Sequence record: MK509462
From: Shigella phage MK-13
DNA length: 64,000 bases
Strand: one strand, 5' to 3'
Made by a program: the position numbers and the translations under genes. The notes beneath the pieces were generated by a model, which saw only the letters and a program-made list of their open reading frames with translations, was not told where the DNA came from and made no database searches. Below are positions 59,787 to 64,000 of this stretch, one piece after another; positions within the stretch are counted from its first letter, which is position 1, and every line of letters begins with the position of its first letter.

Positions 59787-59870
59787 TGGAGCGGGAGAGC
59801 AGGATTCGAACCTGTCCAGTGATCGTCGCCGATGATCAGTCGGCTACTGTCCAACCCCTATGGCTCCCGC
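59787..59870 (-). tRNA. tRNA-like gene, atypical (anticodon unresolved; GAT if the central hairpin is the anticodon arm)
   Basis: Hand-folded: 7-bp acceptor gcgggag/ctcccgc, T-loop TTCGAAT, encoded CCA, 5-bp hairpin gccga-ctGATca-tcggc; one extra nucleotide between T-stem and acceptor and a long variable region. Confidence 0.35.
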
Positions 59871-60093
59871 GAAATAAGGACGGGCTTCACACCCGATTGA
59901 GCATTTGATCTGCCGTAGCCCAACTCCCCGCGCTTCTCAGCGCCGATTGGTTAACTGGCGACCAGTGCCTTCTGGTTCGATCTCCTGGAACTTTACAGGC
60001 TTTGCGCCCGACCATTTCTGGAAGTTGGGGCATCGTTTCCGATGTGGAGTCACCCCATTTTATACACAGCGTGGCTGCAACGCTTACTGTGTT

Positions 60094-60177
60094 TGGTGTG
60101 AGTGGATGGATTCGAACCACCGCGCTGTTACGGGGAGATTTACAGTCTCCTGCATTCGACCGCTCTGCCACACTCAC
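60094..60177 (-). tRNA. tRNA-Tyr (anticodon GTA), class II with long variable arm
   Basis: Hand-folded: acceptor gtgagtg/cactcac, anticodon arm ggaga-ctGTAaa-tctcc, T-arm ggtgg-TTCGAAT-ccatc, encoded CCA; anticodon loop matches E. coli tRNA-Tyr from memory. Confidence 0.7.
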
Positions 60178-60187
60178 ATTTGGTCTA

Positions 60188-60251
60188 CCGCTGCGTGCTG
60201 GGCCACGCTCGAGGACATCGGCCATCCTTCCTCAGCTAATCCACGCAGCGG
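60188..60251 (-). other. Long hairpin (10-bp inverted repeat ccgctgcgtg / cacgcagcgg, about 44-nt loop) adjacent to tRNA-Tyr
   Basis: Inverted repeat seen directly; possible processing signal or small RNA. Confidence 0.35.
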
Positions 60252-60434
60252 CAGATTTGTTTCAGAGTGTCCGGTGTAGCAACCCGTGAGGTGCGCACTA
60301 CTGTAGCCTCTACACTCTGAATTTGGTGGGCGTTACTATCGTCGTCTTCGGATTCCGTTCGGCTATTGGACAGAGGCTTGGAGCTTGTCGGTCGCGTACT
60401 TCGTGCCTATTCACTTTCGTTCACACCCATTGTC

Positions 60435-60510
60435 TGGCGACGATGACAGGACTTGAACCTGTGACATATGGATTAACAGTCCACCGTTCTACCGACTGAA
60501 CTACATCGTC
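60435..60510 (-). tRNA. tRNA-Asn (anticodon GTT)
   Basis: Hand-folded canonical cloverleaf: acceptor gacgatg/catcgtc, D-arm gttc/gaac, anticodon loop ctGTTaa, T-arm acagg-TTCAAGT-cctgt, encoded CCA; near-identical core to E. coli tRNA-Asn from memory. Confidence 0.75.
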
Positions 60511-60939
60511 TTTATCCGTGCTTGTTCGCTTCAATCGCCCTTAATTGGGCATCAGCGTCAGCTTTGGTGTCATGTGTACCAAGAACCTTCGTCTTGGTGT
60601 GGTCAAGGACAACCCACTTGTCACCTCGCTTTTCAACAAACTCGACAATCTCTTTGTTGTCGGTAGCGAGGCCATCCCACTCAGCAATAAAATCACCGAA
60701 CGTTTTCATCATACTCACCAATTGTTTATTGAACAACTGGTTTATTTAGGTGCTCCCAAGGCGGTATTTGAATCCCGCGATCCCATCACACCTGCCGTAG
60801 ACCGGAGCTTGCTGGCAGTCCAACAATGTTTGGCGGGGTTTGAGGATTTTCACCTCACCTGCTGGGTTTGGCCGCCCAGCCGTTCTCTATGAGGATTCGC
60901 TGTCCGGACAACTATCCCTTAAACTATCGCCCCTCAATT

Positions 60940-61019
60940 TGGTTGGAGGAGAAGGATTCGAACCTTCAACGGCTGCCGCCATCCCCTCAGGGAATGTCTA
61001 CCCCTTCCATCATCCTCCA
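60940..61019 (-). tRNA. tRNA, isotype uncertain (possible anticodon TGA)
   Basis: Perfect 7-bp acceptor tggagga/tcctcca, perfect T-arm gaagg-TTCGAAT-ccttc, encoded CCA; D and anticodon arms fold ambiguously by hand. Confidence 0.45.
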
Positions 61020-62540
61020 AATTATTGTGTGACCAACCAAGGACTGTCAACCCTTTATCCCGTTTGTGCATGATCAGTTCATGCAGGCCTGTTTGTGCGC
61101 CTCACAGCATGCGCTTCTGTTGGTCATTGGCTTGCACCGTAGCCTCGCAACAGGCGTTTATTTTTCCAGGGCTTTCCACTTGCAAGTCTTAACCATACAG
61201 GGATACGGGCTTGCAAGATCGGGTTGGTCACAACTCTGATGGCTCTCGCCTTTCCGCTCATTTACCTGTCATCCACAACCGATATACATTATGGAATCTT
61301 GAGAGCCATCAGAGTTGCAGCCATGCTACAACCCGCACCTGGGAGAGGACAAGGTGATCGACCCCAGATACTTGCCTGCTTTCGCCAGGCCAAACGGTTT
61401 AGCGTCGGGTGCCTCCCGATGCCATTATCATGGCGAATAATGGCGTTGACTTATCCTCAGGTGGTTCTTGCCACTCAACCCTTGCGCTTAGCAGGATTCA
61501 CTAAACAACCCGCACTTCAGTGTCTTCGTCACACTTCAGCACTTGTCCTCTAACGTTCAGACCAAACGAGGCTGGCCGATAGCAAACTTGTTCTCTGGTA
61601 TTTTGTGACCCGCCAGAACGGTATGGGTTGATAGCCCGAACTCAGTTTGTATCGTAGAGTGATCACACTTGTCAGGATGATCACTATTTTGCGAACTCGA
61701 GAATACTGCACCTGTCTCGGGTTTCCCCTTAGTACGGTCACTCATTGTTCGAAGCAGTCAGGGAGCTACCCTTGATGACCGCGCTTATCTTGAGCTGTTC
61801 CTGGTGCCCACCAGTGTCCGGAATGTATAGGCATCGCAGCTTTACAAGGCAATGGTCTATTTCACCCATCGCTCTCCCAAGTTCGCAAAGTAGAGTTCTC
61901 TGAACTTCAATGACCCCTCATCTTGTACTATCGCCGCCGGGAACGTTCACCATGTGAATCAACCCTTGGGTTAAGTTCAACGTCCAGAGGACTCTACTTT
62001 GCGTTGTGGGGGCTGACCCCCACACGGCTACTTCTTTAACAGGGATTGCCAGCCCTGGGGATTCCACTGTTTAAGGCTTCATCCCATAACGCCTTAGGCG
62101 TGTTCTCAAATTATTGAGCTTGCTTAACTGCAAACTGATGCGCTGTGAGACACATCTTTGAGGGCACTCAGTGTGCAACAGGCTCCGATATTTCATAGGG
62201 CATTACTGCCTCGGATTTGAGTTGCCTTTCTCCTGAAACTCCATGCAGTCTCGCGTCTGACGCGGAATGCCCTCAAAGATGTGGAGCCGCTTTAGGGAGT
62301 CGAACCCAAGTGATTGGCCAGCGCTGACCTCACACCCCACCTGATATGTTCACCGGAACTTGCCTACTCAGGAGCTTATCCCCTTTTGACAATCAGGTAT
62401 AGCGGCATTGTAAATCTGTTTGGGCGGAGGCCTGTAACCAGCAGGCATCTCCTAGCGAACTTCTGAACACCAGGCTCGGGTGCGCCTGTCGCTGTGGTGA
62501 GTTCGACTTAACTCCTGAGCGGTTATTCCCAGTCGTCGAC

Positions 62541-62624
62541 ACCCCCCAAACAGATTTTAGTCGGCGGGAGCTTATTAATCACACCCCCCAAACAGATTTT
62601 AGTCGGCGGGAGCTTATTAATCAC
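62541..62624. repeat. Perfect tandem duplication of a 42-bp unit (accccccaaacagattttagtcggcgggagcttattaatcac x2)
   Basis: Two identical adjacent copies; a partial inverted copy (aaatctgtttggg) lies about 120 nt upstream. Confidence 0.7.
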
Positions 62625-63357
62625 ACCCTCCCGCCTATTGTAGTGCGCCGAATTTTGTTATGAGGAGTCGGAAGACCTCACTGACTTATAGGCTATTACG
62701 CCGCCATCAGAACTACATCATCGTTTGCATTTATTTTTGTGGTCTGTTTCTTAAAACCCGCAAAGTCACGCACAACGAAAACGAAAACCTGTTTGAGCAC
62801 AAGACGCCATGTCCTGGGTTCACATCGAAGTGTTTGTCTAATGCCCAAACAGCTTTTCGTTCAATGGGTTAACTATACTCTGCAACCCGTTATTGACAAA
62901 ACTTTAAATCTGCCGGAACTTACGCATCCGGCCTCGCCTGTTGGTGCTCCTTCGAATCCGGGAAGATCAGCAGGAACTATGAATCAAGTTAATTCAACCA
63001 ACAGGAACCTTTGTGTTGCCCTTTGACGCAACATTATGAACCCTCTGTGAAGATCCATAATGTTGTCGGCGTGATGGAACCTGGCAGATCCGTCCTCCCC
63101 TATATGTTGGTGTCGACTTGCCAACGGGGTGCTCTCAAGCATCTGAGCTAATCACGCTACAACAGGGAGTTTCGTTCTCCGACGGTCAGTGCGTCCACTA
63201 ACACCATGCAAGGTGGATGTCACGCCTCTATTCACGCATGCCCCTGAGACTGGGATTAGTGAGGTCGGCTTTAGATGCCTAACTCAATGCGCTGTTCGCC
63301 TCACGTTTAATACTTTACCACAGCCCAGCTAATTTGAAAAGTCCTCTCCTCTTTGAG

Positions 63358-63504
63358 TTACACTGCCCACAGCAGTGCGGACGAACCTTCACTCAAAACC
63401 GGATGCACCGAAGTGGGCGACTGTTTACCGGACTGATCGGGTAGACCCAGGAGAGTAAAGGTAATCCCGATCAGGAGGATGAGGAGTAACATCATGTAAA
63501 ACAT
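63358..63504 (-). CDS. Small hydrophobic protein (about 48 aa)
   Basis: Hand translation MFYMMLLLILLIGITFTLLGLPDQSGKQ... preceded by a strong GGAGGG RBS; approximate coordinates. Confidence 0.3.
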   Translation of the reverse strand: MFYMMLLLILLIGITFTLLGLPDQSGKQSPTSVHPVLSEGSSALLWAV

Positions 63505-63561
63505 AGTGTTCCCTCCCTTCCATGCAACTAACTTTACTGCAATTCTTTATTGAATAAAGCG

Positions 63562-64000
63562 TTATTTTACCACTTTTAACTTCACATCACGCTCGAGCAG
63601 ATACACATATTCACGGGCGGCTGCGAGCGACATATAATGGGTGGATGGGGTGCTGTGTTTGTTCAGCGTCTCTTTTAATTCAACTCGCTCAGCCCACCCA
63701 TTGATGGAGGTGCCGTAGAAGCCGATGATAGCAGCGAAATAAATGCGTTGAGTTTCCGGCTCCAGGATGTAGTTCACGGTGAAGCAAACTTCAGAGCGAA
63801 TGCCAGAAGGTTTGATACCAATACGAAAATATGGCATCTCATTGCTAACACACAAATGGCGAAAACGATCACGACGGGCTTGTGTTGACTCCGTAAGTTC
63901 TTTACGCAGATGTATATCGTCGATGTTAAAAGAGAATGTGTTGTTGCTCTTTAGATCTGATTTAGCCAGGTCGATAGCAGAAGGAAGGACACGGCGGAAA
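63562..64000 (-). CDS. Hypothetical protein, partial (5' end beyond the window)
   Basis: Track ORF 63562..63855 starts at TTG, but the frame stays open upstream to position 64000 with no stop. Confidence 0.4.
   Translation of the reverse strand, partial: FRRVLPSAIDLAKSDLKSNNTFSFNIDDIHLRKELTESTQARRDRFRHLCVSNEMPYFRIGIKPSGIRSEVCFTVNYILEPETQRIYFAAIIGFYGTSINGWAERVELKETLNKHSTPSTHYMSLAAAREYVYLLERDVKLKVVK

Follow-up and report, generated by a model that had tools for sequence, protein, structure and literature searches.

What does a short, perfect tandem repeat signify when it lies in a part of a phage genome that is poor in open reading frames (ORFs)? The DNA considered here, called the window below, comprises 64,000 nucleotides of Shigella phage MK-13 (sequence record MK509462), a member of the Ackermannviridae; near its end, a 42-bp unit is duplicated head to tail, and the core of the unit occurs once more in inverted orientation. 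An earlier note on this DNA had suggested that such an arrangement could mark iteron-like origin elements, packaging sites or slippage during replication. It is likely, in our assessment, that the repeat is a slippage duplication private to this phage, that it has no cis-acting role in the DNA, and that it is tolerated inside a structured RNA similar to transfer-messenger RNA (tmRNA). The repeat is of value for where it lies, as it points to a conserved RNA gene, missing from annotations, that heads phage tRNA clusters and appears to hold the tag half of tmRNA only.

The Tandem Repeat and Its Inverted Partner

In the 64-kb window, Tandem Repeats Finder reports an array at 62539-62628 with a period of 42, 2.1 copies, 100% matches and a score of 180, while the runner-up array of the window has a score of 53. 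A repeat search gives the units 62539-62580 and 62581-62622 as identical; the hexamer ACACCC is present at 62539, 62581 and 62623, and with its third occurrence (62623-62628) the array amounts to 2 × 42 + 6 nt, or 2.14 copies. A run of 48 matched positions in 64 kb cannot be attributed to chance. The adjacent units had been placed at 62541-62582 and 62583-62624 in the earlier note, and both frames fall inside the perfect period-42 stretch; the ORF-poor surroundings described there are confirmed by the ORF list, and the self-comparison proposed as a check recovered one strong period-42 array together with the inverted partner. The element is thus described as follows:

62539-62628, no strand assigned: perfect tandem duplication, two copies of a 42-bp unit and a third ACACCC as the candidate slippage microhomology (repeat finders, relatives)

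The inverted partner, seen at about 62415 in the earlier note, is located at 62412-62427; over 16 nt, its complementarity to each of 62542-62557 and 62584-62599 is 94%, and its 13-nt core CCCAAACAGATTT is found exactly on the minus strand at 62412-62424. With up to two mismatches allowed, the core has 8 sites in the window compared with 1.57 expected, and none of 100 shuffles reaches 8; five of the eight sites cluster within 62412-62856.

Origin of the Duplication

Over 61000-63500, the closest record is that of Shigella phage Gloob (Agtrevirus), with 95.5% identity, and Kuttervirus phages show about 85%. The segment containing the repeat is carried by seven phages, namely Vi01, SJ2, GEC_vB_N6, May, cp19, IME250 and KP6F1, in which the matches span 283-287 bp compared with 319-321 bp in MK-13. 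Copy number was compared in these relatives, as the earlier note had advised, and exactly one 42-bp unit is present in all six carriers that were aligned (Vi01, GEC_vB_N6, May, cp19, IME250 and KP6F1). In the single-copy relatives, the unit is already bracketed by the short direct repeat ACACCC(C)TCCC, reading GACACCCCTCCCAAAC on one flank and TCACACCCTCCCGCC on the other, 42 bp apart. The whole segment is absent from the close relatives Gloob, CBA120 and SeKF_19, and the repeat junction was found neither in any other phage record searched nor in IMG/VR or the JGI metagenomes.

The comparison above shows that the 42-bp unit was duplicated in tandem recently, and in MK-13 alone. Its origin appears to be replication slippage or unequal exchange between short direct repeats 42 bp apart, because the head-to-tail copies are identical, the microhomology pre-exists in single-copy relatives, and none of the other genomes and metagenomes searched shows the duplication; mispairing of slipped strands, or unequal exchange, at ACACCC (in MK-13) or ACACCC(C)TCCC (in the relatives) would generate the second 42-bp unit. 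Among the causes suggested earlier, slippage therefore stands, given identical copies, a pre-existing flanking microhomology and restriction to one phage, while the iteron origin and the packaging site are not supported, with only two copies that are unconserved. Taken alone, the duplication is an ordinary mutational event.

The Minus-Strand RNA Gene Holding the Repeat

The repeat lies antisense to a minus-strand structured RNA, which extends from a predicted promoter at 62872-62899 to a tRNA-like element at 62406. This RNA gene is located at the head of the phage tRNA cluster, and four minus-strand tRNA genes at 59787-61019 (ARAGORN) adjoin the ORF-poor stretch, which in most deposited genomes is blank or filled with short 'hypothetical proteins'. 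The features of the gene are listed below from its 5' side:

62872-62899, minus strand: predicted sigma70-type promoter TTGTCA-16-TATAGT (10/12 matches), start placed at about 62865
62781-62860, minus strand: Ackermannviridae-specific 5' hairpin with arms ACGAAAAGCUGUUUGGGCA (62842-62860) and UGCUCAAACAGGUUUUCGU (62781-62799), holding a third CCCAAACAG-like motif (predicted fold, repeat finder)
62729-62767, minus strand: conserved pre-tag region GACUUUGCGGGUUUUAAGAAACAGACCACAAAAAUAAAU, ending directly before the resume codon (alignment of 52 dereplicated copies)
62693-62728, minus strand: candidate tag frame ANDDVVLMAA with two stops (sequence, pattern scan)
62681-62710, minus strand: stop-codon helix, similar to tmRNA helix 5, CUGA 62707-62710 with UCAG 62681-62684 (99% paired; GC to AU exchange or the reverse in 24 of 52 copies)
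62648-62680, minus strand: hairpin A (UGAGG 62676-62680 with CCUCA 62661-62665; 3 of 5 pairs compensatory, 97% paired) and H-type pseudoknot
62668-62671 with 62648-62651, minus strand: the pseudoknot pairing, loop CCGA with UCGG (4 of 4 pairs compensatory, 94% paired)
62605-62635, minus strand: hairpin B, GGCGGGAG (62628-62635), loop GGUGUGAUUAAUAAG (62613-62627) and CUCCCGCC (62605-62612) (6 compensatory pairs)
62412-62599, minus strand: optional domain with a long closing helix, whose 5' arm AAAUCUGUUUGGGGGG occurs in two copies, at 62584-62599 and at 62542-62557, and whose 3' arm is CCGCCCAAACAGAUUU (62412-62427)
62282-62406, minus strand: 125-nt tRNA-like RNA bounding the unit at its 3' side (8 pairs co-varying across 9 Ackermannviridae phages)

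The -10 element TATAGT is kept in Gloob, CBA120 and SeKF_19, and promoters are predicted at the equivalent place in wV8, KMM4, Panisse and DS8; no intrinsic terminator was found in 61000-63600. A promoter created by the duplication was also considered, and the promoter scan detected none there. In the closing helix of the optional domain, AAAUCUGUUUGGG pairs with CCCAAACAGAUUU at 62412-62427, and in this predicted fold the 'inverted copy' is the 3' arm of the helix. The arms of the closing helix are invariant in all seven carriers while the interior of the domain diverges, which fits a structural role.

The Tag Reading Frame

On the minus strand, AUAAAU is followed by GCA AAC GAT GAT GTA GTT CTG ATG GCG GCG TAA TAG (62693-62728), which reads as ANDDVVLMAA and two stops; the frame has no start codon, and its GCA resume codon begins at 62728. 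The frame was compared over at least 130 copies, consisting of the matches listed from a degenerate-pattern scan of IMG/VR and the loci already compared. Among these listed matches to the scan pattern, which come from many phage lineages, 10 codons and a stop are present in 130 of 130 copies; at least 16 peptides of the form AN(D/E)(D/E/N)xx(L/M)x(A/V)A and at least 31 coding variants, many of them synonymous, occur; and, in most copies, both other frames are closed by a stop within a few codons. In addition, most copies have an in-frame UAG eight codons before the resume codon, and the interval contains no AUG, which excludes ordinary initiation. CBA120 and Vi01 differ in the tag by three synonymous and no non-synonymous changes. 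The tags read in other phages and in a plasmid are as follows:

ANDNTFLAVA: Vi01, CBA120, May, IME250
ANDNAYLAVA: Gloob
ANEEMYLAVA: HK633
ANDNVFLAVA: wV8
ANDAQFLAVA: Panisse
ANDDLMMVAA: P1-like plasmid

Structure, Covariation and Likeness to tmRNA

The structure tested on the 52 dereplicated copies comprises a helix between tag codons 7-8 and sequence past the stop, hairpin A, the pseudoknot and hairpin B. It was found that 87.5% of cells are paired, compared with 31-51% when the partners are slid, and that the covariation score is 0.323, compared with at most 0.12 in controls, with none of 500 shuffles reaching 0.323. Compensatory changes are present at 15 of the 24 pairs, including six pairs of hairpin B and all four of the pseudoknot, whose variants are CCGA/UCGG, CCAG/CUGG, CCAA/UUGG and GUCG/CGAC; the loop of hairpin B is invariant across phage families. 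The pre-tag region is highly conserved, the pairs that RNAalifold places there never vary, and no co-varying pseudoknot similar to PK1 of tmRNA can be defined.

The conserved core resembles the mRNA-like half of tmRNA: an AUAAAU-GCA resume site opens a start-less frame with an Ala resume codon, the 10-codon tag has a hydrophobic or Ala-rich C-terminus and a stop, and the stop codon lies in a helix 5-like helix that is followed by an H-type, PK2-like pseudoknot. A profile of the phage tags aligns with the tag of E. coli ssrA without gaps and in register, resume on resume and stop on stop, with 6.5 bits (E = 0.003); the best of 500 shuffles gives 5.3 bits, and none reaches 6.5. The Rfam models tmRNA_permuted (30.5 bits, E = 3e-4) and alpha_tmRNA (20.3 bits, E = 7e-4), both run on 901 nt, align at the spot of the tag below threshold.

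The tRNA-like domain of tmRNA, with its 7-bp acceptor, G3:U70, A73, CCA and T arm, is missing from the module. In the minimal modules (Kolesnikvirus and Mooglevirus), a sigma70 promoter stands about 50 nt before the tag, and the module ends about 150 nt after it, at tRNA-Leu or tRNA-Arg. In the window, Rfam at gathering thresholds returned nothing but tRNAs, and no family for the module in seven other phage contexts; ARAGORN likewise returned nothing but tRNAs and made no tmRNA call in 130 of 130 contexts of the copies listed. Candidates for the missing part were tried and rejected. The 125-nt RNA at 62282-62406 has C3:G70 and U73, and both of its acceptor strands lie downstream of the tag. 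In wV8, an unannotated tRNA-like gene on the minus strand, with G3:U70, A73 and encoded CCA (alanine identity elements), is located 155 nt downstream of the tag and has a marginal tRNA score of 31.7 bits (positions 1355-1433 of the stretch examined); it was taken as the next, separate tRNA-like gene and not as the acceptor of the module, because Kolesnikvirus and Mooglevirus have the ordinary tRNA-Leu or tRNA-Arg at that position. A two-piece permuted tmRNA was set aside as well, with a promoter directly upstream of the leader in DS8 and Ounavirinae and no pairing partner in the window. The module would thus be a variant of the tmRNA theme that is devoid of the tRNA domain.

Effect of the Duplication on the RNA

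On the RNA, the duplicated 42 nt contain 13 nt from the 3' side of the hairpin B loop, the 3' arm of that hairpin, the linker GACUAA and, from the closing helix, the 5' arm. Hairpin B therefore has two alternative 3' arms (62605-62612 or 62563-62570), and for the 5' arm of the closing helix there are likewise two choices (62584-62599 or 62542-62557). Both hairpin B and the closing helix are kept in the predicted folds with one or two copies; the minimum-free-energy fold uses the first 3' arm of hairpin B and the centroid the second, and the one-copy fold is the same minus the extra loop. Either copy could supply each arm, so that both native helices would form while the extra 42 nt loop out, and for this reason the duplication is probably neutral or nearly so, and tolerated. 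At the insertion position, relatives have nothing, the optional domain or a different module; the best reading of the duplication is that of a tolerated insertion, placed where insertions and deletions already tended to occur.

Weighing of Rival Explanations

Direct repeats accompanied by an inverted copy, in DNA without protein-coding genes, resemble replication origins in general, and the repeat could then consist of iterons, or of another double-stranded DNA array bound by a phage initiator or regulator. Iteron origins have three or more spaced repeats of about 17-22 bp that are conserved among relatives, while here the unit has 42 bp, roughly double what is usual for an iteron, and only two copies are found; the carrier relatives have a single copy, several close relatives are devoid of the segment, and neither an AT-rich unwinding element nor an inflection of GC skew is located near the repeat. 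Moreover, the repeat coincides with RNA helices for which covariation is seen between phage families, and an iteron reading is accordingly very improbable. For a packaging (pac) site or genome terminus nothing specific speaks; the end of the window is about 1.4 kb away, and some records of relatives (phages 'barely' and 'maane') are linearised near this region, probably arbitrarily. The segment is unconserved among relatives that share the packaging machinery, and the site lies within a tRNA and non-coding RNA cluster away from the terminase genes, which leaves this the most improbable of the readings considered. With only two copies, no conservation and no skew inflection, the iteron and pac readings are unsupported, and the repeat is very probably not a cis-acting DNA element.

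A small protein gene with an internal repeat was also considered, since a 33-aa ORF exists on the minus strand at 62523-62624 and short 'hypothetical proteins' are annotated here in the records of May and GEC_vB_N6. This ORF has a GTG start and no conserved frame, its segment is missing from close relatives, and the sequence is explained by co-varying RNA helices; a protein gene across the repeat is unlikely, because a 1-nt indel relative to the other phages shifts the frame, and the small-protein reading, to which we give very little credence, was rejected. An artefact of assembly or sequencing, with a true genome that has a single copy, would agree with a perfect repeat whose junction is present in no other assembly. 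Ordinary reads are longer than a 90-bp array, and such arrays are as a rule resolved correctly; a recent real duplication would be expected to be just as perfect, and the flanking microhomology offers a natural mechanism, so an artefact is improbable, though somewhat less so than a protein gene or an iteron.

Several points weigh against a tolerated slippage repeat in a tmRNA-like RNA. The variable sites of the tag are spread over the codon positions 6:4:7, and the single-base codon differences comprise 504 synonymous and 696 non-synonymous ones, so the coding signal of the tag is suggestive but not decisive. The similarity to real tmRNA is limited to about 50 nt and is weak at 6.5 bits, and the Rfam scores lie below gathering, with 30.5 against 47 (RF04321) and 20.3 against 50 (RF01849). 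A scan for acceptor and T arm that recovers the domain of E. coli ssrA finds none enclosing the tag in the phages. The closing helix is backed by conservation; it never varies and so has no covariation support. The promoter, the ends of the RNA and its processing are all inferred, and the tolerance of the duplication is deduced from energy-model folding.

Distribution and Genomic Setting

The part of the window at about 62600-62790 is 90-99% conserved in Ackermannviridae, and the module also matches unrelated phages, always in ORF-free gaps; these include T1-like DS8, N4-like IME11, lambdoid HK633, FelixO1-like wV8, Dhillonvirus-like phages and Erwinia phages. A 2.5-kb query matches 737 phage records, and the sampled matches outside Ackermannviridae all fall on the module. 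Among complete E. coli genomes, 656 of 5,426 have a match by blastn, at 150 chromosomal and 554 plasmid places; the plasmid carriers are about 90-136 kb in size, and the 150 chromosomal matches are presumably prophages. The chromosomal ssrA of these 5,426 genomes is not matched by the query at blastn sensitivity.

The setting of the module recurs as well. In the copies listed, tRNAs on the same strand follow downstream in 75 of 130 contexts, and tRNAs on the opposite strand in 0 of 130. For instance, the P1-like plasmid p91 has the module, unannotated, between dmt and tRNA-Asn/Thr, at 1288-1962 of the stretch examined; in HK633 it lies, also unannotated, in the leader of the late transcript between PR'/qut and the holin gene, at 950-1900 of the stretch examined; and in wV8 it is part of a tRNA cluster. 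Annotators leave the module blank or cover it with spurious small ORFs, and a covariance model for the family would end this omission.

Downstream of the tag in HK633 and in many IMG/VR loci, a recurrent closing helix ACAACAGGUAAGAGCA/UGCUCUUUCCGUUGU surrounds highly variable inserts, and in the same loci a 3' domain GUGGUG...CACCACA abuts a T-arm-like hairpin, with the canonical UUCGACU loop in loci L024 and L113; this looks like a modular, indel-prone RNA architecture. In CBA120, orf221, at 2562-2975 of the stretch examined, is an HNH homing endonuclease gene inserted in the tRNA and non-coding RNA region, as is also the case in some other Kuttervirus phages, which fits a region that is a hot spot for mobile insertions.

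Possible Function of the Module

One tentative reading is that the RNA serves as a tag template in ribosome rescue of infected cells, in which decoding of the tag would depend on SmpB and a tRNA-like partner provided in trans. That a frame with no start codon is conserved much as a peptide would be argues for decoding in the manner of tmRNA, the lack of an own tRNA-like domain argues that the module cannot decode alone, and a partner in trans is proposed because the conserved module lacks a domain that accepts alanine. It is equally conceivable, and held with similar reserve, that the module is untranslated and acts as a tmRNA mimic or decoy that titrates a host factor, or as a leader or processing scaffold of the tRNA operon, with the frame kept at the RNA level. 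This would agree with the lack of an alanine-type tRNA-like domain, which counts against decoding, and with the first two codons, invariant at all three positions in the 31 variants listed, although the scan pattern largely fixed them; the 3' tag codons, moreover, are part of a helix, and the downstream tRNAs are on the same strand in the contexts counted above. An untranslated RNA is harder to reconcile with exactly 10 codons in all 130 copies listed, a stop that is always there and frequent synonymous variants, and with a peptide that keeps the chemistry of real SsrA degrons (AND... at the start and ...AA or AVA at the end). Pairing of the module with host tmRNA was also considered, and RNAduplex, used here as a crude method, found no site in E. 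coli ssrA that was significant or recurred consistently (z between -2.0 and +0.9).

A broader proposal, rather unlikely as it stands, is that of a tmRNA-derived class of 'tag-template-only' RNAs, which would have spread horizontally among Ackermannviridae, Ounavirinae, lambdoid, T1-like and N4-like phages and P1-like plasmids and would be decoded in rescue with a partner in trans. If it held, the phage would rewrite the degradation tag (for instance to ANDDVVLMAA or ANDNTFLAVA) or boost the capacity for rescue. Decoding of the tag would mean an undescribed phage manipulation of ribosome rescue and degradation tagging, by an RNA architecture outside current models of trans-translation; if the tag is not decoded, the module would be a clear case of molecular mimicry of tmRNA.

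Other Features near the RNA Gene

The 125-nt RNA at the 3' side has the acceptor GCCGCUA/AAGCGGC, the T arm UUGGG-UUCGACU-CCCUA, U73 and encoded CCA and no anticodon arm; it has no alanine identity because its 3:70 pair is C:G. It is called by neither ARAGORN nor Rfam and is missing from the deposited annotations. Further long hairpins are present in the ORF-poor stretch at 61231-61317 (17 nt, perfect), 61884-62003 (22 nt, 91%) and 62151-62283 (24 nt, 88%), which probably represent additional structured RNAs on the downstream side of the tag module. On the minus strand, 61397-61506 gives a sub-threshold Rfam match to the gammaproteobacterial small RNA STnc100, with 33.4 bits against a gathering threshold of 47 (E = 1.3e-4 on 5 kb). 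Two of the genes called by ARAGORN, tRNA-Ile(gat) at 59787-59870 and tRNA-Ser(tga) at 60940-61019, both on the minus strand, give weak tRNA-Sec hits only and are atypical or degenerate, since the Rfam tRNA model scores them below gathering. At 61595-61637, a 43-nt match (95.5%) to Erwinia phage vB_EamP_Rexella, a phage of 75 kb outside Ackermannviridae, may represent another small element common to several phage families.

Just upstream of the module promoter, SeKF_19, Gloob and CBA120 have a 67-nt tRNA-like gene (1918-1984 of the SeKF_19 stretch) in which no anticodon arm is seen by eye; it is annotated 'tRNA-Ala' in SeKF_19, and its 3:70 pair is U:G or C:G. This gene is absent near 62905 in MK-13 and was either lost or never acquired.

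Comparison with Known Systems

As a mutation, the repeat corresponds to slipped-strand tandem duplications at microhomology in its head-to-tail order, perfect identity and pre-existing bounding repeat, and no difference from them was seen. Among the RNAs of phage tRNA clusters, the species 1 and 2 RNAs of T4 (rnaC/rnaD) are stable non-tRNA RNAs, and the 125-nt RNA is presumably of the same general kind. The T4 RNAs are structured, lie beside phage tRNA genes in the same orientation, and are presumably cut out by the enzymes that process tRNAs; they are not known to contain a tag frame.

The closest system is tmRNA itself. With E. coli ssrA (RF00023; tag ANDENYALAA), the module shares a start-less GCA resume codon preceded by an A-rich stretch, a tag of 10 codons that starts with AND or ANE and has a small hydrophobic end, and a stop codon in helix 5 with the pseudoknot directly after it. 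It differs in that no tRNA-like domain is formed from its 5' and 3' ends, there is no G3:U70/A73 acceptor, PK1 was not identified, and the minimal modules of about 200 nt have their own predicted promoter and ordinary tRNA genes directly after them. The two-piece tmRNAs of alpha- and beta-proteobacteria and cyanobacteria (RF01849-51, RF04321), which gave the best sub-threshold hits, are alike in having a tag piece separate from a 3' acceptor piece; theirs, however, have an acceptor piece upstream and a coding piece that opens with the pairing 5' acceptor strand, neither of which is present in the phage module.

In curated surveys, phage tmRNAs have been reported only from Bxz1-type mycobacteriophages, from DS6A ('TLD only', for tRNA-like domain) and from Bacillus phage G (PMC4131195, PMC11915505). 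The element of enterobacterial phages is absent from these surveys, no description of it was found in the literature searched, and searches with the tag peptides were empty; a tag-template RNA of this kind has apparently not been described before. It has in common with the RNAs of DS6A, Bxz1-type phages and phage G that it may be a phage-borne derivative of the trans-translation RNA, and DS6A is likewise a phage with just one half of tmRNA. The halves are opposite: DS6A keeps the tRNA-like half without a tag, whereas the element of enterobacterial phages keeps the tag half without the tRNA-like half, and if the proposed decoding holds, it would represent a new, split architecture of trans-translation and the mirror image of the DS6A RNA.

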